From NCBI RefSeq assembly GCF_045037415.1, contig NZ_CP173438.1: 64,000 bases of DNA; one strand, 5' to 3'. Both the position numbers and the translations under genes were made by a program. Numbering within the stretch: position 1 is the first letter of the stretch; each line of letters begins with the position of its first letter. Positions 19,806 to 34,948 of the stretch are shown one piece after another. The notes under the pieces are model-generated. The model had not been told where the DNA came from. It made no database searches and saw nothing but the letters and a program-made list of their open reading frames with translations. The stretch is from Escherichia coli. Its GTDB lineage: Bacteria > Pseudomonadota > Gammaproteobacteria > Enterobacterales > Enterobacteriaceae.

Positions 19806-21701
<1,896 letters not shown>

Positions 21702-21729
21702 TAATCCTCCCGCCAGAAGAATAAAACAT

Positions 21730-21762
21730 AGCCCGGTATACAAGTGTATACCGGGCTTTTTT
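21730..21762. terminator. Bidirectional rho-independent terminator between parE (+) and the TonB-dependent receptor gene (-)
   Basis: AGCCCGGTATAC-AAGT-GTATACCGGGCT hairpin followed by TTTTTT. Confidence 0.6.
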
Positions 21763-21764
21763 GA

Positions 21765-23906
21765 TCAAAATTCCATTTTCACCGTGAATTGCACTTCACG
21801 CGGATCGCCAATCTGATTCCCCAGATTATTTGTGGCGATGGAAGAGGTGTAATACGTTTTATCAAACAGGTTTTTGACGTTTAATTGCAGTGTGACCGGA
21901 TACTGCAATTTCATTTTGTATGCGGCGAAGGCATCGGCAACAAAATAGCCTGGCAGATAATAGTCAGCCCCATTGGTTGCCGAACGACGGCTTACACCAT
22001 GTCCACCACCGCCAAATGTCAGCGTATTATTGCCTGGCATGTTATGAATATCATAGGTCAGGAATAGCGAACCGGTATGACGAGGAACATTCGGCAATGG
22101 TTTCCCTGCATAATCAGGATCCTCCAGAACCTTAGCATCGGTATAGCCGTAGCTGGCAATGATATTAATGTTTTCAGTTAATGCTCCCGCAAGGTCGACT
22201 TCTACCCCTCTTGAACGAACACGGCCTGCCGTTTTGGCGATGGTTTCATCACCAATACTTTCGGTATACAACACATTACGTTTATGGATATCAAACAGCG
22301 CAATATCTGCGGTGATACCATCGAATAGCTCGAATTTTGCCCCGACTTCGTAAGCATTAGATGATTCCGGTGGAAGATCGCCAATGTAGCTGGCAATTGA
22401 CGACTGCGGCATAAATGTTTGCGAATAATTGGCAAATAAGGATACCGATGGCGTCAGTTTGTAGACCAACCCCAGTTTGGGAGTCCATTGTTCATCGCGG
22501 CTGTCAGTATTGACATTAAAAGGACGGCCTTTACCCGCATACTGCGTGTAATACTGATAGCGGATCCCGGCGACGGCAATCCAGTTATCGGTCAGATAGA
22601 GTGCGTCCTGTGCATACGCTGAGTAGCTCTCCTGTTTGATCGTCTGATCACTGTCCGACGCCGAAACCGTTGTACATTTGCTGGTATTACCATAAACAGG
22701 GTTGTAAATATTGAAATCTTTAGCTTTTTTACAGCGAATCATATCTGTACGCAGAAGATCATAATATTCATATGACACCCCACCCAGAATCTCATTATAG
22801 AATCCGGCAATATCAACATTCCCTTGCAGATCCGCACGAGTAGCATGCATACGCTGGGTAGAGCCCTGAGTTGCATCAACACGCCGTGTCAGTGTTCCTG
22901 TCGTTGCATCATATGCGGTAACACGCGCCTGATTATCGCTGTATTTATCCTGGCTGTAGCTGTAATCAAAGCGTGCTGTCCACTGGCTATTGAGATGATA
23001 TTCTGCGTTGAGTTGCGCCAGATCGGACTGACCATCTGTAATATTAAACGGTTCGTCAAAACGTATTTTTCGATCAACGTTTACGGGCTGTTTCGTCGTA
23101 AGGTCGAAAATCGTTCCACGATCGAACGGAGTTTTATAGTCCCGATGGGAATAGAGCATGGTTACTGTTGCATTATCACCAAACCATGTGAGTGACGGGG
23201 CAATAAATGTACTGCGCTCTTTACCGAAGTTTCGCCAGTAATCTTCATCCTGCACTTCCCCGGTAAGGCGATACGCCAGCTGAGTGCCTTCAATGGGACC
23301 TGTGATATCAAGTTGCCCAGTGCCGCCACCAAAACTGGAGGAGGTGGCTGAAACCGAACCATGGAATGTTTTTTCCGGGCGCTTGGTCACGACGTTAATC
23401 AGTCCGCCAGGATCGAGAATGCCATACAGCGTGGAGGCCGGGCCTTTTAGCACTTCCACACGTTCTGTGGCGGCGTTGAAACTGCGAGGAAGTACGGTTC
23501 GCAGACCGTTGGTCATGATGGAGCCATCCCGGTTTGCGCCAAACCCACGGCGTACAAAGGCGTCCTGAGTTCCGCCTAATGTATTGGTCTGTACCACGTT
23601 ACTGACGTTATAAAGCGCCTCATCCAGCGTTGTCGCATTCTGGTTTTCCAGAACCTGATCGCTAACCGTATTGACCACCTGCGGGATATCCAGCATCGGC
23701 ATATCGGTTAATGTCGCCGTAGAGGTGCTCAGAGGTTGATAACCATCGGTTGCCTCAGTTGCGGTATTTGCATCTGCTGTAACAGTGATTGTTTCGCCAT
23801 CTTTGGTCGTTACAGAGTCTGTTGCATGAATCATCGGTGCCGCAAAAAGCAGTGAAAAGAGCGCCCGACCTTTGAGTCCTGAGAATGAAGGTGTGAACAT
23901 AGCCAT
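21765..23906 (-). CDS. TonB-dependent outer-membrane siderophore receptor (fit-locus FitA-like), 713 aa
   Basis: Signal peptide, plug-domain and C-terminal beta-barrel ending ...QFTVKMEF (terminal aromatic residue); divergent from an iron-type ABC importer with a Fur-box-like site between them. Confidence 0.8.
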   Translation of the reverse strand: MAMFTPSFSGLKGRALFSLLFAAPMIHATDSVTTKDGETITVTADANTATEATDGYQPLSTSTATLTDMPMLDIPQVVNTVSDQVLENQNATTLDEALYNVSNVVQTNTLGGTQDAFVRRGFGANRDGSIMTNGLRTVLPRSFNAATERVEVLKGPASTLYGILDPGGLINVVTKRPEKTFHGSVSATSSSFGGGTGQLDITGPIEGTQLAYRLTGEVQDEDYWRNFGKERSTFIAPSLTWFGDNATVTMLYSHRDYKTPFDRGTIFDLTTKQPVNVDRKIRFDEPFNITDGQSDLAQLNAEYHLNSQWTARFDYSYSQDKYSDNQARVTAYDATTGTLTRRVDATQGSTQRMHATRADLQGNVDIAGFYNEILGGVSYEYYDLLRTDMIRCKKAKDFNIYNPVYGNTSKCTTVSASDSDQTIKQESYSAYAQDALYLTDNWIAVAGIRYQYYTQYAGKGRPFNVNTDSRDEQWTPKLGLVYKLTPSVSLFANYSQTFMPQSSIASYIGDLPPESSNAYEVGAKFELFDGITADIALFDIHKRNVLYTESIGDETIAKTAGRVRSRGVEVDLAGALTENINIIASYGYTDAKVLEDPDYAGKPLPNVPRHTGSLFLTYDIHNMPGNNTLTFGGGGHGVSRRSATNGADYYLPGYFVADAFAAYKMKLQYPVTLQLNVKNLFDKTYYTSSIATNNLGNQIGDPREVQFTVKMEF

Positions 23907-24005
23907 TTAGTCTGTTATCCCAAAAACTCGCGGATTGTCGCGAGTGAAAATTGTTTCTTATTGCTCACTAAGCACTATCCGTTTGTTATTTCGCCATCGG
24001 ATATG

Positions 24006-24024
24006 TAATTGAGAATCATTCAAT
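24006..24024. promoter_or_regulatory. Candidate Fur box in the divergent promoter region between the receptor and the ABC importer operon
   Basis: TAATTGAGAATCATTCAAT resembles the Fur consensus GATAATGATAATCATTATC (about 11/19, core GAGAATCATTC); AT-rich intergenic region. Confidence 0.45.
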
Positions 24025-24279
24025 CACGCAGTAATGTAGTAGTAAATGAGAAATAACAAAAAATTGCTACATGTGTTTTTATGAAAGGTTTATACAATTT
24101 GATTGCTTTTAATTTATTGATATTTAATGTTTTTATTTTTATGTATAAAAATATTTTACCTGTTATTTACCTTGTTTTTGTGTGGCTTTTAACTGCTTGA
24201 CTACTACATTTTGTGGCGTCAAACTCTCAAAGGAGAATGAGTTTTATTTTTGTTTGTCTTTGATTAAGTTGGCGTACAC

Positions 24280-25089
24280 GTGGCACATAACGCAAAAGGG
24301 CAGGGGCTGATCCTCGACAATGTTTCTGCCGGGTATCACAAGAAAATCATTGTTGATGGTGTTTCTTTCTCCGTTCCCACAGAAAAAATGACCGTTCTGG
24401 TTGGGGCAAACGGCTGTGGAAAGTCGACGTTGCTCAGCACCATTGCACGTATCTTGCAACCTATGGGCGGTTCGATATTGCTTGATGGCAAAGCGATTCA
24501 CGAGCAACCAACGAAAGCGTTATCCCGTAGACTTGGGATCTTGCCGCAGTCGCCATTATTGCCGGAGGGCTTAACCGTTTATGAACTGGTGTCGCGTGGG
24601 CGTTTTCCCTGGCAAAATTTCATACGTCAATGGAGCGACGCCGATGAGCAGGCGGTGGAAGAGGCCCTGAAATTAACCGGTACGCAGGAGTTTGCACATT
24701 TACCTGTTGAAAAACTCTCTGGTGGGCAGCGCCAGCGTTGCTGGATTGCGATGGTGTTGGCGCAAAAGACGCCTTATATCCTGCTGGATGAACCCACAAC
24801 CTGGCTTGATTTACGTTATCAGGTTGAAATTCTTGAGTTATTACATGATTTAACGCGTCATCACGGGCGTACAGTCGTCGTGGTGTTGCATGATCTGAAT
24901 TTTGCCGTCAATTATGGCGATACGTTGATATTTTTACGCCAGGGGAAAGTGGTGCGTGTGTTGAATGAGGGGGAGCATTGCACGCCTGAACTGGTAAAAG
25001 CTGTCTTTGACGTTGATGTTCACGCATCAATAAATCCTCTGACGGGAAAGCCGTTCTTCATGCCGTTTCGTGGTGTAGAAAAAGTATGA
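24280..25089 (+). CDS. ABC transporter ATP-binding protein (iron-siderophore/FecE-like), 269 aa, GTG start
   Basis: Walker A GANGCGKST, ABC signature LSGGQRQR, Walker B ILLDEPT. Confidence 0.85.
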   Translation: MAHNAKGQGLILDNVSAGYHKKIIVDGVSFSVPTEKMTVLVGANGCGKSTLLSTIARILQPMGGSILLDGKAIHEQPTKALSRRLGILPQSPLLPEGLTVYELVSRGRFPWQNFIRQWSDADEQAVEEALKLTGTQEFAHLPVEKLSGGQRQRCWIAMVLAQKTPYILLDEPTTWLDLRYQVEILELLHDLTRHHGRTVVVVLHDLNFAVNYGDTLIFLRQGKVVRVLNEGEHCTPELVKAVFDVDVHASINPLTGKPFFMPFRGVEKV

Positions 25090-26069
25090 TGCGCACAGGG
25101 CTGGTTACTGTAATTTTCCTCGCCTTACTGCTGGTGGGATGCGTGGTATATCCAGGGATTGGTGCCCGATTTATTGCACCACAAACGGTGTTGCAGGCAT
25201 TTCTTCATTTTGATCCGCAAAACTTCGATCACAACGTAATTGTAAGACTCCGTTTGCCGCGTTTAGCGGCAGCATTGCTTACCGGTGCTTCTCTTGGTGT
25301 TGCTGGTGCTTTGTTGCAGGCTGTCATTCGTAACCCATTGGGGGAACCACATATTTTAGGCTTAAATGCCGGAGCCGCTCTTGCTGTCGTTGCCGCCAGT
25401 GCGCTTGGACTGGCCTTTCCGGTTGGACGCCCACTGCTGGCATCTACGGGGGGCGCGTTATTGTTCCTGTTGATATTGCTGCTTTCCTCCGCAGGGCGTT
25501 CAGGGTTAACGCCAATGAAAGTTACTTTATGCGGCGTGGCGCTATCGGCGTTCGTGTCCTCAATAACGGCTGCAATCCTGATTCTTGACGAACAAACACT
25601 GCTGGCGATGCGGACATGGCTAGCAGGTGATTTAGCGGGGCAGGATTGGGCGACGCTGGGTACGTCCGCCTGGTTTTCTCTGGGGGGATTTGTGTTAGCC
25701 CTTTACCTTGCACCCTCCCTTAACATGTTGGCACTGGGCGATCGCATGGCGCAGGGGCTGGGCGTCTCTGTACTCCGCACGCGAACATTCACCCTGCTTG
25801 CGATCGCGTTGCTCTGTGGCGCAGCCGTATCGATTGCTGGCCCCATTGGTTTTGTCGGCCTGCTAGTACCGCAGATTGTCCGGCGTCTGGTATCAGCGGA
25901 TCTGCGCGTTCTGCTCCCTCTTTCAGCTTGTGTCGGCGCGCTTTTGTTATTACTGGCAGATATTATTGCCCGGACGCTTTTCACGCCCCATGAGTTAGCG
26001 ACCGGTGTCATGACGGCGTTAGTTGGTGCGCCTGTTTTTGTCATTATGGCGACGAGGATGTTCAAATGA
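25086..26069 (+). CDS. ABC transporter permease (FecCD family), 327 aa
   Basis: Polytopic hydrophobic protein; start overlaps the ATPase stop (translational coupling). Confidence 0.85.
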   Translation: MMRTGLVTVIFLALLLVGCVVYPGIGARFIAPQTVLQAFLHFDPQNFDHNVIVRLRLPRLAAALLTGASLGVAGALLQAVIRNPLGEPHILGLNAGAALAVVAASALGLAFPVGRPLLASTGGALLFLLILLLSSAGRSGLTPMKVTLCGVALSAFVSSITAAILILDEQTLLAMRTWLAGDLAGQDWATLGTSAWFSLGGFVLALYLAPSLNMLALGDRMAQGLGVSVLRTRTFTLLAIALLCGAAVSIAGPIGFVGLLVPQIVRRLVSADLRVLLPLSACVGALLLLLADIIARTLFTPHELATGVMTALVGAPVFVIMATRMFK

Positions 26070-27115
26070 GTCGGATAATGAACGTCGGGCTACGCCCACT
26101 ACGTGTTGGTAAGTTTTCGACACTGGTGCGCCCTAAAAATCTGCTGTTGCTTGGTGGGCTGTTCCTGCTTGCGGTTGGAATACTGATATTCGGTCTGATG
26201 CAGGGTTCTTTCTCTGTTCCGGCATCGGAAGTAGGACGAGCGTTGTTTGCTCCAGAAAACGTAAGCACAGACGCACGTTATATTGTGCAGGATATTCGCT
26301 TGCCGAGAGTCATCATGGCATTGCTATGCGGGGCCATGTTAGGTATGGCAGGGGCCGCAATGCAATCCATTGCACGTAACGGCCTTGCCGATCCTGGTTT
26401 AATCGGCGTCAAAGAAGGATGTAGCGTGGCTGTGCTGTGGCTGATTTTCCAGTTTCCAATGCTGGGAATGTTCTGGCGTCCAGTGGCTGGTCTTGCTGGT
26501 GGCCTGTTGGTGGCTTTAATCGTGATTTTTTGTGCGCGCGATATTTCCCGCCCGCGATTTGTTCTGATTGGTATTGGTGTTTCCTGGTTTTTCGCCGCCG
26601 GTATCGGTGTATTTATGACCACTGCAGATGTTCGAGATGTACAAACTGCATTGATGTGGTTATCGGGAAGCCTGCATGCAGCTAACTGGATGTTAGTCGG
26701 TATTTCAGCCTGTTGGATGTTGCCAGCCGCTCTTTTATTGCTGTTCACCGCCAGGACTGCGGATATCGCTCTGCTTGGTCATCAGGTTGCAACCGGGTTA
26801 GGGGTGAATAGTTCTCGTCTGGCGTTGTTACGTGTCGCCGCACCCATAATCCTGACAGCCGTCTGCGTTTCGTGTGTTGGTAACATCGGTTTTGTCGGAT
26901 TGATAGCACCCCATATATCACGTTTTATTCTACGTGGCGGGCAGACGACATTACTGCTGGGGAGCGCGGTATCGGGGGCGTTGTTAGTTATTCTGGCGGA
27001 TAGCATTGGTCGTTTGGCTTTTTTGCCTTTGCAACTGCCTGCCGGAATCATTATCTCACTGATTGGTGGACCATTTTTTTTACTACTGCTCTGGCAGCGC
27101 AGGAACAGTTTTTAA
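26066..27115 (+). CDS. ABC transporter permease (FecCD family), 349 aa
   Basis: Second FecCD-type permease; start overlaps the preceding stop. Confidence 0.85.
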   Translation: MSRIMNVGLRPLRVGKFSTLVRPKNLLLLGGLFLLAVGILIFGLMQGSFSVPASEVGRALFAPENVSTDARYIVQDIRLPRVIMALLCGAMLGMAGAAMQSIARNGLADPGLIGVKEGCSVAVLWLIFQFPMLGMFWRPVAGLAGGLLVALIVIFCARDISRPRFVLIGIGVSWFFAAGIGVFMTTADVRDVQTALMWLSGSLHAANWMLVGISACWMLPAALLLLFTARTADIALLGHQVATGLGVNSSRLALLRVAAPIILTAVCVSCVGNIGFVGLIAPHISRFILRGGQTTLLLGSAVSGALLVILADSIGRLAFLPLQLPAGIIISLIGGPFFLLLLWQRRNSF

Positions 27116-27125
27116 CGGGAGTTAT

Positions 27126-28073
27126 ATGCGTTTATTTTTTTCTCTGCTGATACTGTTGTCATTTTTTTCCCGTGCAACAGAACCTGTTCAGGTATTTACT
27201 GATGATTTAGGGCGCAAAGTCACTGTTCCTGCTCATCCAAAGAGAATTGTCTCTTTACACGATCTTGATATCACTATTCCTCTGATTGAGCTCGGTGTAC
27301 CTCCTGTCGCCAGCCACGGGCGAACTCGGCCTGACGGTAGCCATTTCATTCGATCTGGCGCGTTATTGACAGGTGTCGACTTTGATAATTCATCGATCGC
27401 CTTTATTGGTACCGCTGATATTGATATTGAAGCGATTGTGGCGGCAAAGCCTGACTTGATCATCACAGAACCGACCCGTAATACGCCCATTGAACAACTT
27501 GAAAAAATTGCGCCCACGGTGAGCATTGATCATCTCAAAGGGGGCGCGCCAGAAATCTATCGCAAGCTGGCAGAACTTACAGGAACGCAGTCGCAGCTGG
27601 CGATACTTGAACGCCGCTATCAGGCACAAATCAATGCGCTGAAGGCGACGCTGGACAGCCAAAAAATAACGGTATCGGTGATTCAGGCAAACCAGGGAAA
27701 AATTAATGTGATGCATAGCTATCATTCGCTGGGACGGGTATTACGCGATGCTGGTTTTCGTTTTCCGCCGCTGATTGAGAGCATTCCTGAAGGTGGGCGA
27801 ATGGATGTGAGCGCGGAGCGTTTACCTGAACTGGATGCCGATTTTGTTTTTGCAACCTGGCGCGGTGACACCGGTGGTAAACCTCAGGATGAGCTGGCAG
27901 CAATGGAAAAAGTCATGCCGGGATGGTGTCAGTTTCTGACTGCCTGTCGTTCCGGGCGTTATGTGCTGATTTCTCGTGAAGAGGCAATTTCTAACTCCTT
28001 TGCATCTCTGGGGCTGATGGCTGCGCAGATACAATCACAAATTGCAGGGCGACCTCTACCGGAGGCTAAATGA
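27126..28073 (+). CDS. Periplasmic iron-siderophore binding protein (FhuD/FecB-like), about 315 aa
   Basis: ORF 27063..28073; start chosen at the ATG preceded by GGGAG; signal peptide MRLFFSLLILLSFFSRA; class III SBP-like composition. Confidence 0.8.
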   Translation: MRLFFSLLILLSFFSRATEPVQVFTDDLGRKVTVPAHPKRIVSLHDLDITIPLIELGVPPVASHGRTRPDGSHFIRSGALLTGVDFDNSSIAFIGTADIDIEAIVAAKPDLIITEPTRNTPIEQLEKIAPTVSIDHLKGGAPEIYRKLAELTGTQSQLAILERRYQAQINALKATLDSQKITVSVIQANQGKINVMHSYHSLGRVLRDAGFRFPPLIESIPEGGRMDVSAERLPELDADFVFATWRGDTGGKPQDELAAMEKVMPGWCQFLTACRSGRYVLISREEAISNSFASLGLMAAQIQSQIAGRPLPEAK

Positions 28074-28957
28074 TCCAGAAAGATAAAGTGCGGGTTGATA
28101 TTTTTGGTGAGCGTTTTCGCACTCGCGCGAGTCAGTTAACGCCTGGGTTAAGAGTTGTCGCCAGCTACATTAATGAGCATCGTGAAGTGGTACTCGAGCA
28201 AACGGCGATGGAAATTGCGGCCACGTTGAACACTTCCGATGCCACAGTTATCAGGGCTATACAGGCCCTGGGGTTTGCCGGGCTGCGTGATCTGAAACGC
28301 ACTCTGGAACAGTGGCTTGGTCCAGCCCTTAGTTCCAGCGAAAAGATGTCTACGACGGTGAGTAACTTGACGAGCGATGTTAACACCGCAATCGACTTTG
28401 TTCTTGAAGGGCATTTGTATACCTGTAATGTCCTGTCAGAGCCTGAAAACCGCCACGCGCTTGCGCAAGCTGTAGCGTTGTTGGTGCAGGCACGGCAAGT
28501 CGCAATTTTTGGCATTGGCGCTTCGGGTATTCTGGCGGACTATACCGCACGACTATTCAACCGCATAGGTTTGCCTGCCACGGCACTAAACCGTACGGGT
28601 ATTGGCCTTGCCGAGCAACTGATCGCGCTTCAACGTGGCGATGTTCTGATCATGATGGCGCAAAAATCTGCGCACCGGGAAGGGCTGACAACGCTTCGTG
28701 AGGCGAGGCGGCTGGGGATCCCTGTTATTTTGCTGACAAACGCGCTGGATTCACGTTTTAGCAAAGACGCCAGTATCGTGATTCATGTTCCGCGCGGGGA
28801 TGAAAAAGGGAAAACGCCGCTACATGGTACGGTATTGTTGTGTCTGGAAATGATTGTCTGGTCGGTAGCTTCCGCAGTGCCGCAGCGTGCGGTTAAAACC
28901 ATTAAGCGAATTAACGATTTCCATCGAGGACTGAAAACGGGAAGAAAGAATGGCTAA
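28070..28957 (+). CDS. RpiR/MurR-family transcriptional regulator (HTH plus SIS domain; fit-locus FitR-like), 295 aa
   Basis: N-terminal HTH (..EIAATLNTSDATVIRAIQALGF..) and C-terminal SIS-type sugar-phosphate binding region; start overlaps the binding-protein stop. Confidence 0.8.
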   Translation: MIQKDKVRVDIFGERFRTRASQLTPGLRVVASYINEHREVVLEQTAMEIAATLNTSDATVIRAIQALGFAGLRDLKRTLEQWLGPALSSSEKMSTTVSNLTSDVNTAIDFVLEGHLYTCNVLSEPENRHALAQAVALLVQARQVAIFGIGASGILADYTARLFNRIGLPATALNRTGIGLAEQLIALQRGDVLIMMAQKSAHREGLTTLREARRLGIPVILLTNALDSRFSKDASIVIHVPRGDEKGKTPLHGTVLLCLEMIVWSVASAVPQRAVKTIKRINDFHRGLKTGRKNG

Positions 28958-29001
28958 TCTGGGCTGAGACCGGTAGCAGCACCGGCCTCTTTTTAGAAAT
29001 G

Positions 29002-29316
29002 TCAAAGCCCCGGCTGCAGGATACGAATATTCATCTCCAGCACGTCACCTTTTACGGCTTCGCTATATGCTTTCATGTGCGGGGTTTGCAGATGCGCTTC
29101 AAGATGCGCGATGCTTTCCCACTGCTCAATCATCACGATAGAATCCGGTGCCATAGACTGGAAACTCACGCCAGCAGCGCAATCCACCATTGGCGCATAG
29201 CCGTGGCAACCTTCTTCTTTCAGTACGGTTGGAACGATTTTAGCAAACTGATCCAACACTGCCTGACGGTGATGTTGACCAGGACGAGTACGAATTTCTG
29301 CGATTACTGTAATCAT
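29002..29316 (-). CDS. ygiN: Quinol monooxygenase YgiN (ABM domain), 104 aa
   Basis: Product MITVIAEIRTRPGQHHRQAVLDQFAKIVPTVLKEEGCHGYAP... recognised as YgiN; operon with mdaB. Confidence 0.9.
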   Translation of the reverse strand: MITVIAEIRTRPGQHHRQAVLDQFAKIVPTVLKEEGCHGYAPMVDCAAGVSFQSMAPDSIVMIEQWESIAHLEAHLQTPHMKAYSEAVKGDVLEMNIRILQPGL

Positions 29317-29928: not shown

Positions 29929-30178
29929 TTTTTTAACCTCAAGGTGAGACGTTTGCCGACTATAGTACGTCACAGAGCGGTACGGTGAAATTAGCAAAAT
30001 GTGCAAAGTCTTTTGCGAATTTAGCAAAAGTCTGATCTTTCTCTGATTCACCGATGCGGGATAAATATTTTCTGAAAATGACAATACTTAAATCAACTTC
30101 CCATAAGCTCCCACAGGAGAGATGTATTATGCAAATGATACAGGAGTTTTTCGGAAAAAATGATTATGGAGAATATAT

Positions 30179-30658
30179 ATGTCAAATATGATATACTTAT
30201 CAATTAAAGGGAAAATACAAGGTTTGATCTCTGAGGGTTGTGGTTCGTATGCATCTATTGGTAATAAATATCAAATAAATCATGTGGATGAAATTTTTGT
30301 TTTACAGTTCGACCATTCTTTAAGTCGAGAGTATAATGTAGTGCATCACCCCATAAAATTTTACAAGCCAATAGATAAATCCTCCCCTTTATTAAATGCC
30401 GCTCTTTCTGAAAATGAAGAGTTATCAGCTGTATTTAATTTTTATAGAATTAATTCTGGCGGTTGTATTGAAAGGTTTTACACAATTGAATTGCAAGGAG
30501 CACATTTATCGAATATTCTGACATGTTATCCACACTCAATTACACATGCGGGTAATCAGCCGGAAGAGGTCATTGTTCTTAATTATAAAAATATAACATG
30601 GAAGCACCATATCGCGAGTACGGAATCATATAGTTGTTGGGAAGAAAGGATTTTTTAA
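30179..30658 (+). CDS. hcp: Orphan Hcp-family protein (type VI secretion tube/cargo-carrier family), 159 aa
   Basis: Product MSNMIYLSIKGKIQG...HHPIKFYKPIDKSSPLLNAAL...FNFYRINSGG...VIVLNYKNITWKHH... follows the conserved Hcp pattern; AT-rich; no other T6SS core genes in the window. Confidence 0.75.
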   Translation: MSNMIYLSIKGKIQGLISEGCGSYASIGNKYQINHVDEIFVLQFDHSLSREYNVVHHPIKFYKPIDKSSPLLNAALSENEELSAVFNFYRINSGGCIERFYTIELQGAHLSNILTCYPHSITHAGNQPEEVIVLNYKNITWKHHIASTESYSCWEERIF

Positions 30659-30660
30659 AT

Positions 30661-31371
30661 ATGAAAAGCGATCTCACTATAAAAAATAGATATTGTACAA
30701 TTCCACAAGCGAAGTTCCGTAAATGGGATGAAATGGACGTTTTACTCTGGAAGTTAGGAAAAAATGATTCGCGTCGCCGTTCAGGAGTATATTATTTAAA
30801 TGCTTATAAAGATGCATATGTACAATATAATAGAGACAAAATAATTAAATATGCATACGCCGCTGGAATTCGTCCAGAGTTACTGGGCGGCGTGGCCTGG
30901 ATTGAGTCAGGAGGTATGCCTGAAAATTATAAGTTTCAGATATATGAAACAAAAAGAATGATCGGATTGTTAGATATGCCTGAAAATAAAACATCATTTG
31001 GCTCAATGGGTATACAAATACGAACCGCAGCGATTACTCTAGGTCTAGACCCTTCAGAATTAACTACCAGAAATCAGTTAGAGTTAGCGACATGCCTAAT
31101 GGAGGATGATTTTACCTTTCAAATTGCTGCTACTTATTTAAGAGATCTTGTTCTTTTTGATTATCCCTCTTCGGCAACACTGTATATGACGAATGAGCAG
31201 TATATTATGGCTGGTATTAGATATAATCGTGGTGTTGAACGAGATTTGGGTTTTTTTATTTGTTTAATTAATAATTTGCCTGCACGTGATACAGATGATT
31301 ATAAATTCATCTCTTATGGTATGAGGTTGTTAGAGATTAGAGAACATATCAAAAAATTGATTAATGAGTAA
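30661..31371 (+). CDS. Putative Hcp-associated effector with lytic-transglycosylase (SLT / lysozyme-like) motifs, 236 aa, no signal peptide
   Basis: ATG preceded by AAGGA, 2 nt after the hcp stop. Ordered motifs: E82-S83 (WIESGG), G117-I-Q-I120 with TAA (SMGIQIRTAA), A157-T-Y-L160 (QIAATYLRDL), Y188-N-R-G191 (GIRYNRG). AT-rich. Confidence 0.6.
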   Translation: MKSDLTIKNRYCTIPQAKFRKWDEMDVLLWKLGKNDSRRRSGVYYLNAYKDAYVQYNRDKIIKYAYAAGIRPELLGGVAWIESGGMPENYKFQIYETKRMIGLLDMPENKTSFGSMGIQIRTAAITLGLDPSELTTRNQLELATCLMEDDFTFQIAATYLRDLVLFDYPSSATLYMTNEQYIMAGIRYNRGVERDLGFFICLINNLPARDTDDYKFISYGMRLLEIREHIKKLINE

Positions 31372-31377
31372 TCAGAT

Positions 31378-31710
31378 ATGTTAAAAAAACAACTACTATC
31401 AATATTTGAAGCACTATTATATATAATGCTTACTTATTGGTTAATAGATTCTTTTTTTGCTTTCAATAAGTATGACTGGATGCTTGAGTCGGGAGACAAT
31501 ATTTGCAGTATACCTTCTGTTTCAGGCGAAGATCGTATATTACAAGCAATGATTGCAGCATTTTTTCTTCTGACACCACTTATTATTCTTATCTTAAGAA
31601 AACTCTTTATGCGGGAAATGTTCGAGTTTTGGCTATATGTATTCTCGCTCGTTATTTGTCTGGGTTGTGGTTGGTGGCTTTTTTGGGGACGGTTTATATT
31701 TTGCTATTAG
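31378..31710 (+). CDS. ygiZ: Small polytopic inner-membrane protein YgiZ, 110 aa; candidate cognate immunity protein
   Basis: Starts 6 nt after the effector stop on the same strand; three predicted TM helices; matches YgiZ in size and in position next to qseC. Confidence 0.7.
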   Translation: MLKKQLLSIFEALLYIMLTYWLIDSFFAFNKYDWMLESGDNICSIPSVSGEDRILQAMIAAFFLLTPLIILILRKLFMREMFEFWLYVFSLVICLGCGWWLFWGRFIFCY

Positions 31711-31755
31711 TAAAGTCTATGAGAGTCGTTTTAACGGCTCTCATAGACAGAGAAG

Positions 31756-33105
31756 TTACCAGCTTACCTTCGCTTCAAATCCACCTTGTTTCGCATTCCC
31801 AAAATCAACATTCATGCCATGCAATTTGGCGATTCGCTGGACAATCGATAGCCCAAGTCCACTGCCGGTAGCGGTTTGTCCGGGTGGGCGATAGAAGCGT
31901 TCGCCAATTCGCGCCAGTGCCTCTGGTGTCACACCAGGGCCGTTATCCCTCACGATGAAATTATCGGCATTCAGCGTGACGTCTACCACGCTACCTTGTG
32001 GACTGTAACGCACGGCGTTATCCAGCAAATTTCGCACCAACAAACTTAGCAATAGCGGTTGTCCGGTGCGTTTGATGCCGTTGGCATTGAGTGTCAGTCG
32101 CACGTCAATGTTCGCCTGCTGCGCCGTGTGGTAAATATCCATCACCGACGATTGCAGGAGATCTTCAAGCGGGATCTCCGCGACGTCCTGAAGGTTATCC
32201 AGTGAGTCCAGCCGCGATAGCGTGAGCAGTTGATCAACCAGACGAGTAGCGCGATCGATCCCGGAATGTAATTGGAGCAGCGCTTTTTTCCGCGCCTGCG
32301 GATCATCGTCAGAGAGCTGAGCAACTTCGGTTTGCACTTTCAGCGCCGTTAACGGGCTACGAAGTTCGTGAGCTGCGTCGGAGGTAAAGCGTCGTTCACG
32401 AACCATCATCGCATGTGTGCGGGCGAACAGTTGATTTAGCGACTCAACCAGTGGGCGCACTTCGCTGGGTACGCCCGTCGCGTTTAGTGGTTTTTCCGAG
32501 TCTGGGTCACGCATACGTAGTGCCAGCGCCAGTTTGTTCAGCGGCGCGAGTTCACGACCCAGTAGCACCATCATGATGATTAACATAATCGGCAGTGCGA
32601 CCAGCCACGGGATCAATTGTCCGGCAACAATCGCCAGCGCCATGTCTTCACGGTATTCCCATTCCTGACCCACAACGATGCGATATTTGCCATCAGGTGA
32701 GGTCATCCAGACAAAACGCCAGGGATCGTCTTCACCGACCAGTTGCCCGTCAGCAAAACCTTCCCGCTGATAGCTATAGGGAATATCTTCTCCGTTATCG
32801 CCATCGTTAAGGACCATTCTGCCGTCGTGGGTAAAGATGGCAAAAGTCAGCGCATCGTCATCAACATGACCGTGTTTTAATTTATTTGGCGTCTGTGCCA
32901 TGCGATCCGCCGCGTTGATTTCGTTGAGATCGAGCGTACTTAACCGTTTGGCAAACAGCATCAGTTGGGTGTCGAACAACTCATCGACGTTATCCGTTGT
33001 TTGTTTCCAGGCGACAAAGCTGGAAAGCAGCCAGGTCACCGAGGCCAGAATTAAAAAGATTAGCGTCAGCCTGACTCGCAGACTAAGACGTTGGGTAAAT
33101 TTCAT
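31756..33105 (-). CDS. qseC: Sensor histidine kinase QseC, 449 aa
   Basis: Two TM segments, HAMP, H-box (..[12 protein letters not shown]..) and HATPase region; overlaps the qseB stop. Confidence 0.9.
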
Positions 33106-34840: not shown

Positions 34841-34948
34841 TGGGGAATCTTTACCGGAGTGTGAGCCAAATCACTCGCGATAAGTTTGAGCAAACAATGC
34901 CACAGGCGTATTGTTGTCGGGCTTATAATTTCTCCGGTAAGGAATACC

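Follow-up and report, generated by a model that had tools for sequence, protein, structure and literature searches.

The window analysed here is a 64,000-nucleotide stretch of the Escherichia coli contig NZ_CP173438.1, 99.6% identical to E. coli strain 4/1-1 across 41.7 kb. Our subject is an open reading frame (ORF) on its plus strand, hereafter the candidate effector, which lies between an hcp gene and ygiZ in the local order ygiN(-), mdaB(-), hcp/tssD(+), effector ORF(+), ygiZ(+), qseC(-), qseB(-). The three plus-strand genes are tightly packed, with 2 nt from the hcp stop to the start of the effector ORF and 6 nt from its stop to the start of ygiZ, and the block is AT-rich, with a GC fraction of 0.30 to 0.37 (30000-31800) against about 0.50 to 0.55 in the flanks. 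RefSeq names the hcp product 'Hcp family type VI secretion system effector'. The effector ORF itself, 236 codons at 30661-31371, is intact, ends in TAA and encodes a protein of 27.5 kDa with an isoelectric point of 8.3; the opposite strand of the same interval contains stop codons throughout. Its ATG at 30661 is the start chosen by RefSeq (WP_000834026.1, annotated 'hypothetical protein') and agrees with the N-termini of 24 full-length homologues; a longer form of 245 aa, starting from a TTG at 30634, appears in the list of ORFs. The features of the locus are collected in the table.

Table. Features of the hcp-effector-ygiZ locus (positions in the window; T6SS, type VI secretion system)
Feature	Position	Strand	Evidence or remark
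Orphan hcp/tssD, 159 aa, T6SS tube protein, presumed effector carrier	30179..30658	+	TIGR03344, E 5.5e-59, full length
Candidate effector gene; divergent GH23/SLT-like domain at about residues 18-236, short N-terminal extension	30661..31371	+	homologues, profiles, predicted structure
Motif I, GVAWIESGGMP (G77-P87); E82, codon 30904-30906, predicted single catalytic acid/base	30889..30921	+	
Motif II equivalent, TSFGSMGIQ (T111, S112...Q119), preceded by about 19 inserted residues that MltE lacks	30991..31017	+	
Motif III equivalent, A157-T-Y-L160, inside DDFTFQIAATYL	31129..31140	+	
Motif IV, Y188-N-R-G191	31222..31233	+	
Conserved Y219-G220, C-terminal helix	31315..31320	+	at least 90% conserved in 82 relatives
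ygiZ (DUF2645), 110 aa, putative immunity gene	31378..31710	+	Pfam DUF2645, 7.8e-11
Segment with hcp and effector gene, replaced in K-12 by 131 unrelated bp	30107..31367	+	blastn, K-12 mdaB-ygiZ region against the window

A sequence-only reading of this DNA had proposed that the ORF carries, in order, the catalytic motifs of family-1 lytic transglycosylases (LTs), which in the classification of Blackburn and Clarke are reportedly E-S, G-L-M-Q, x-x-Y-L and A-Y-N-x-G. Verified codon by codon, all four motifs lie at the residues it had named, and they are not chance occurrences. Among 25 close homologues (54 to 74% identity), E82, T111, S112, G114, S115, Q119, A123, A157, L160 and Y188-N-R-G191 are invariant. 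Searched for exhaustively with a profile, the domain occurs in 372 clusters at 50% identity, out of which 82 relatives with 24 to 42% identity to the query were aligned. In this distant set only E82, G85, S112 and G191 are invariant, E82 being the sole invariant carboxylate, while conservation is at least 90% at K50, T111, G114, Q119, R187, Y188, N189, Y219 and G220, and also at A157 and L160, where the family pattern is A..[HY]L. The signature as first drawn holds only in part: E82, Q119, A157, L160 and Y188-N-R-G191 are conserved, whereas S83, G117 and T122 are not. Position 83 varies among S, T, V and A, with V the usual residue in distant members; G117 and T122 are specific to E. coli, most relatives having A and V, respectively, and the G-L-M of motif II is replaced in the family by [SV]-[AG]-[MI]. 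The long spacing from ES to GIQ that had been remarked upon is real, with 37 residues from E82 to Q119 against 18 in MltE, and the spacing of 7 from S to Q within motif II is the same as in MltE (S75...Q82). Y219-G220 is a further element, absent from the earlier description; Y219 may match the C-terminal Tyr of family-1 LTs (Y192 of MltE), going by order along the chain, the residue lying outside the hhalign alignment described next.

We compared a family profile made of the 82 sequences with an alignment of the catalytic domains of MltE, Slt70, MltC, MltD and MltF from E. coli K-12. The two matched with an hhalign probability of 94% (E 1.3e-7, 119 columns), E82 falling on E64 of MltE and on the catalytic Glu of Slt70 ('QES'), YNRG on AYNxG (AYNAG in Slt70), and the family's DDFxFxIAAxYL over NPERNISMGAAYL of MltE. 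Motif I and its MltE counterpart are almost the same (WIESGGMP vs AIESGGNP), and PDB titles name E64Q as the inactive mutant of MltE. Against single sequences hhalign was weak (38% for MltE, 0.3% for Slt70), and it was convincing only against the alignment of the five paralogues. The Pfam SLT model is reached by 9 of the 82 relatives at E<=0.1, and by one of them at E<=0.001 (4.6e-5). Structure prediction gave a lysozyme-like, all-alpha GH23 fold: in the second AlphaFold run, made with a deeper alignment, the model reached a predicted local distance difference test (pLDDT) score of 86.7, with all five models between 83 and 87, and its top Foldseek match was MltE (probability 1.0). These three independent lines agree. 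Both the assignment to the SLT type and the suspicion of divergence are thus supported, and, judged from profiles and predicted structure together, the protein is a genuine, very divergent member of the GH23/SLT superfamily.

The comparison with known enzymes shows where the divergence lies. With the family-1 LTs (GH23, PF01464: MltE/EmtA, Slt70, MltC, MltD, MltF) the candidate effector shares the order of the motifs, of which I, III and IV are in register. It differs from them in having no Pfam SLT match, a stretch between motifs I and II that is longer by about 19 residues, a variable Ser in 'ES' and no Sec signal or lipobox, and in being part of a putative toxin-immunity cassette rather than a housekeeping gene. 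That a signal peptide and lipobox are lacking had been claimed before, and we find the same: the protein has no hydrophobic segment, the highest Kyte-Doolittle mean over 19 residues being 0.87, and its N-terminus reads MKSDLTIKNRYCTIPQAKFRKWDE.

Among secreted enzymes, Tse3 (Tge1), which with Tsi3 forms an effector-immunity pair of the Pseudomonas aeruginosa H1-T6SS and is described as a muramidase, is the nearest characterised analogue. It was the top match of the family profile in the PDB, at an E-value (0.17) that alone lies below significance; in that alignment 'ILAEQ' has its Glu opposite E82, and 'TSIGLGQ' pairs with TSFGxxxxQ. Tse3 also has a long insert, with about 30 residues from the catalytic Glu to G-x-Q, and this accounts for the 37-residue spacing found here. 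It differs in its size of about 400 aa, with extra domains. Tse3 is described as Hcp-dependent cargo and is encoded as an effector-immunity pair without an hcp of its own, and Tsi3 is periplasmic, unlike the polytopic YgiZ. Glycan-strand cleavage by the candidate effector is itself a prediction, and sequence cannot discriminate between a lytic transglycosylase and a hydrolytic muramidase: a lone conserved carboxylate is compatible with LT chemistry, and equally with an enzyme of the Tse3 type.

The relatives of the candidate effector have the architecture of polymorphic toxins. Within the set of 82, the domain is found at the C-terminus of proteins with PAAR (3, for example P0038), eCIS_core/DUF4157 (12) or WXG100 (1), and it also terminates the Rhs proteins P0075, P0126, P0168 and P0169. 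A domain so placed on four kinds of carrier protein is a polymorphic toxin domain. Often the relatives also have accessory domains, either OmpA-like (5) or PG_binding_1 (2 to 3), which point to peptidoglycan. A small immunity-like gene is found downstream of the domain on several of these delivery modules. DUF2645 stays with the toxin when the module is changed, since it follows the PAAR-fused P0038 and a 310-aa form; a 102-aa ORF with three predicted helices follows an Rhs-fused member, and polytopic proteins of 165 and 166 aa follow P0080. No adjacent immunity candidate was seen for one eCIS-type member and for one Rhs fragment beside a transposase.

The free-standing form of the effector, in turn, always occurs within a cassette made of a 159-aa Hcp, the effector and a DUF2645 protein of about 110 aa. 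All 13 further cassette loci examined, which lie at unrelated places on chromosomes and plasmids, keep this layout, and in every one of them, as in the window, hcp adjoins the effector gene immediately upstream. A scan of genome contigs, with one genome per species, yielded 8 loci. The cassette occupies the mdaB/qseC site in E. coli and Citrobacter-like genomes, and lies between pagP and an EamA gene in Pectobacterium, on plasmids of 75 to 112 kb with TraI/RepA as well as on the chromosome in Serratia, on chromosomal contigs in Pseudocitrobacter and Buttiauxella, and on a megaplasmid in Rahnella. A distant homologue (42% identity, locus L024) is found between thiBPQ and polB in the arrangement hcp, effector, 109-aa membrane protein. 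On the Serratia plasmids CP072744.1 and CP074138.1 and on a metagenome scaffold (L005-L007, 4507-6058), the complete cassette is beside RepA and a TraI/TraX region; being next to replication and transfer genes on Serratia plasmids, the cassette is plasmid-mobile. Across cassettes, identity is 28 to 64% for DUF2645, 55 to 73% for the effector and 55 to 76% for Hcp, so that the DUF2645 gene diverges fastest. Conservation of the unit across unrelated sites is strong genomic evidence for a joint function of its three genes.

A few damaged cassettes were also seen. In E. coli strain 1449 (NZ_CP184069.1, 709726-712203), tssD/hcp is interrupted by IS1, and the effector gene and ygiZ remain. In Buttiauxella gaviniae (L022, 3752-4041), the DUF2645 gene is split over two frames by a frameshift or a sequencing error, hcp and the effector gene being intact.

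The lack of a signal peptide had led the earlier reading to suggest export by a route such as Hcp. The cassette structure of the 13 other loci and the PAAR and Rhs fusions agree with that suggestion, and we infer from gene order that Hcp is the carrier; a size of 27.5 kDa is compatible with Hcp loading and proves nothing. Residues 1-21 of the effector (30661-30723) have the consensus xRNRFCDIxxxKFRK, are predicted to form a small beta-hairpin and are conserved only in Hcp-linked members, while the PAAR-, Rhs- and eCIS-fused relatives are without this stretch, homology beginning at about residue 17 to 22. These residues are a candidate Hcp-recognition element. The arrangement recalls the orphan hcp islets, or Hcp-ET loci, of E. 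coli, in which, according to two reports, an hcp outside the main T6SS cluster is accompanied by a toxin and a downstream immunity gene (10.1101/2024.03.05.583533; PMC11148199, citing Ma et al. 2017). In Hcp-ET as described there, however, the toxin is fused to Hcp, whereas the effector here is a separate ORF in another frame, and the Hcp-ET toxins listed are nucleases and others, not an SLT-like domain.

Three sequences that resemble fusions were set aside. In P0002 (JGI, 325 aa), Hcp residues 1 to about 100 are joined to the effector from residue 12 onward, and we regard it as a probable deletion variant, not an Hcp-ET. The fusion at L002 (5563-6711 of a metagenome scaffold with Citrobacter-like synteny) has an in-frame stop near codon 31 of hcp and is not a genuine Hcp-ET either; the 3' end of hcp is fused in frame to W22 of the effector by an apparent deletion between '..SYSxW-EE' and '..RKW-DE', and the locus suggests a cassette in decay, or else a misassembly. 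P0004 (ENA, 314 aa), from a 3-kb metagenome contig, joins an unrelated, signal-peptide-like N-terminus to a 100% identical effector C-terminus and is likely an assembly chimera.

YgiZ is the putative immunity protein of the effector. DUF2645 follows an effector homologue in at least 14 loci, and 7 of 12 downstream proteins match the DUF2645 profile at E<=0.001; a word-index search with YgiZ returned almost solely E. coli alleles. The protein has three hydrophobic helices, no soluble domain and about 30 residues predicted outside the bilayer. It has one Cys in the loop after helix 1 and another at the C-terminus, and across homologues both are present or both are absent, which suggests that both are periplasmic and disulfide-linked. 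Against peptidoglycan glycosidase effectors, the known immunity proteins (Tsi3, Tgi2, TsiV3) are either lipoproteins or soluble proteins of the periplasm. The product encoded downstream of the candidate effector is not of this Tgi-like, soluble or lipoprotein type.

Within E. coli, the effector gene is present in 1261 of 5426 complete genomes (about 23%), including sequence type 131 (ST131), where it is 99.9% identical in clade C, and Nissle 1917. It is intact in 1260 of these 1261 carriers. The ygiZ side of the region matches in a much larger share of the same collection (4599 of 5426). K-12 has lost hcp and the effector gene: its homology to the window ends at 30106 and restarts at 31368, and its ygiZ is intact and 92% identical. 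A strain that keeps ygiZ without hcp and effector is what one would expect if ygiZ were an orphan immunity gene.

The interpretation that we favour, and judge probable, is that the 236-aa protein is an antibacterial T6SS effector whose toxic module is the divergent GH23/SLT domain and whose immunity protein is YgiZ. Having no signal peptide, the effector would remain in the cytoplasm after synthesis and there associate, as external or internal cargo, with the dedicated Hcp whose gene ends 2 nt upstream; firing would then carry it into the periplasm of Gram-negative neighbours. There it would cut the backbone of peptidoglycan between N-acetylmuramic acid and N-acetylglucosamine (MurNAc-GlcNAc), with E82 as the single catalytic acid/base, and the wall would be weakened. 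Sister cells would be protected by YgiZ, as a three-helix inner-membrane protein, and K-12-like strains, after loss of hcp and toxin, would have kept ygiZ as orphan immunity.

Several observations weigh against this interpretation. Among the profile results, the Pfam SLT match that the sequence-only reading had looked to did not appear for the single effector protein, which matches nothing in Pfam even at E<=10; NCBIfam gave nothing at E<=1, and searches of PDB sequences (phmmer, and hmmsearch with the close family) returned only noise, namely light-harvesting complex I (LHCI) proteins and a phiKZ protein at E 0.08 to 0.7. Motif II, in contrast with motifs I, III and IV, was not cleanly placed by hhalign on the LT profile, and the likeness to Tse3, as said, falls short of significance when taken alone. 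As to the models, the first AlphaFold run gave only one confident model of five, and a model in which effector and YgiZ are joined by a linker raised the confidence in the effector and carries no information on the interface between the two. As to the system, no T6SS core genes were found within 20 kb on either side of the cassette, and ST131 clade C has been reported with tssM disrupted, clades A and B having it intact according to the same paper (PMC10711316). Finally, as immunity to a peptidoglycan glycosidase, a membrane protein of three helices with some 30 residues exposed is unusual.

This last point is the starting point of an alternative in which the protein is still an SLT-like T6SS toxin, but what kills is not degradation of the mature sacculus: the toxin would act where the inner membrane faces the periplasm, for example on lipid II or on nascent glycan chains still linked to lipid, or would perturb the membrane. 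Action at the inner membrane would explain why the immunity protein is small and polytopic, and a small multi-helix membrane protein is indeed found beside every examined relative that has an adjacent immunity candidate, whether DUF2645, the 102-aa ORF of the Rhs-fused member, the 165/166-aa proteins of P0080 or the 109-aa protein of L024; the scarcity of YgiZ residues outside the bilayer fits as well. However, the conserved residues are those of enzymes that cleave glycan strands, the OmpA-like and PG_binding_1 domains of relatives bind peptidoglycan, the effector has no hydrophobic segment, and a short, disulfide-stabilised loop could still plug the active-site groove. We therefore regard this alternative as unlikely. 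A wider version of the idea starts from YgiZ, a K-12 inner-membrane protein to which no function is assigned; it would be the immunity protein to an unnamed family of SLT-fold polymorphic toxins that cleave lipid II-linked or nascent glycan at the inner membrane instead of the mature sacculus, most E. coli, the T6SS-less K-12 among them, carrying ygiZ as a standing defence against attackers of the B2 type. If immunity is consistently a small polytopic membrane protein, membrane-proximal peptidoglycan synthesis would be the target. We put this version forward as a doubtful conjecture.

Other scenarios dispense with the toxin or with the enzyme. The SLT-like fold and the linkage to a T6SS gene could also be those of a 'space-making' peptidoglycan enzyme that helps the T6SS of the producing cell, or a different envelope machine, to cross the wall, as the dedicated LTs of secretion systems do. 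Such an enzyme would have to reach its own periplasm, for which the protein has neither signal peptide nor lipobox; the same domain ends PAAR, Rhs, eCIS-core and WXG100 proteins, as a toxin domain does, plasmids and islets remote from T6SS core genes carry the gene together with an orphan hcp and an immunity-like partner, and ygiZ is kept alone in strains that lack the enzyme. We consider this scenario very unlikely. We also tend to dismiss, as highly improbable, a decayed phage endolysin-holin pair next to which Hcp would lie by accident. A lysozyme-like enzyme without signal peptide beside a 110-aa three-helix membrane protein is reminiscent of such a pair, and residues 9-196 of the effector (30661-31248) match phrog_11932, of unknown function, at E 5.7e-28. 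Yet a tblastn search of the effector against 50,697 phage records gave no match, and we rejected a phage origin as the main explanation; phrog_11932 may derive from predicted prophage regions. Further, YgiZ and Hcp have no significant PHROG match, the enzyme precedes the membrane protein, YgiZ has no charged cytoplasmic tail, no other phage genes lie nearby, the linkage to Hcp holds throughout the cassette loci, and there are fusions to PAAR and Rhs. There is hardly more to be said for a catalytically dead domain, or one of unrelated function, whose motifs would merely reflect shared fold ancestry. The extreme divergence from curated SLT models and the variability of S83 speak for it, but the residues that stay invariant over a wide divergence are the catalytic Glu and the motifs of the substrate groove, and the gene is intact in all but one of its E. 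coli carriers; we give this scenario scant credence.

An antibacterial effector with a toxic module of this kind would not stand alone among T6SSs. In Acinetobacter baumannii, killing by the effectors Tse4 (10.1101/2021.03.04.433973) and Tae17 (PMC11796386) reportedly needs a lytic-transglycosylase-type domain. Tse4 and Tae17 are large, bifunctional and VgrG-associated, whereas the candidate effector is a single-domain protein of 27.5 kDa whose gene has as neighbours an orphan hcp and the gene of a membrane protein, its putative immunity.

In the literature searched, we found no link of ygiZ or DUF2645 to T6SS and no account of the cassette, although an earlier description under Hcp-ET may exist; DUF2645 was likewise not found in the supplement of a large T6SS effector-immunity survey. 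The proteins are best described, on present sequence evidence, as a new, unannotated family of T6SS/polymorphic-toxin effectors resembling peptidoglycan glycosidases, with an unusual membrane partner in YgiZ. This assignment offers a testable function for two unannotated genes, one a 'hypothetical protein' and the other a y-gene of K-12. The toxin domain is missed by current Pfam and NCBIfam models, and it extends over some 370 clusters at 50% identity, on carriers of the T6SS, Rhs, eCIS and type VII secretion system (T7SS) types. The hcp-toxin-immunity cassette, found also on conjugative plasmids of Serratia, is a compact unit in which to study how a dedicated Hcp selects its cargo. In the gut, orphan ygiZ alleles could shape the resistance of E. 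coli to attackers of the B2 lineage. Immunity embedded in the membrane is the unusual element, and may indicate a different site of action or mode of inhibition; lipid II-linked or nascent glycan, if it is indeed cleaved, would be a kind of target from which GH23-type effectors are not known.

Two other differences from K-12 were observed in the window. The mqsR-mqsA toxin-antitoxin pair, which in K-12 lies between ygiV and ygiS (L015, 1852-2545), is absent, and its flanks abut at 34842-34848. About 7.3 kb at 21698-29003, in the parE-ygiN interval, is absent from K-12; the counterpart of this segment in the near-identical strain 4/1-1 has genes for a TonB-dependent siderophore receptor, an ABC ATPase, two FecCD permeases, a substrate-binding protein and a MurR/RpiR regulator.

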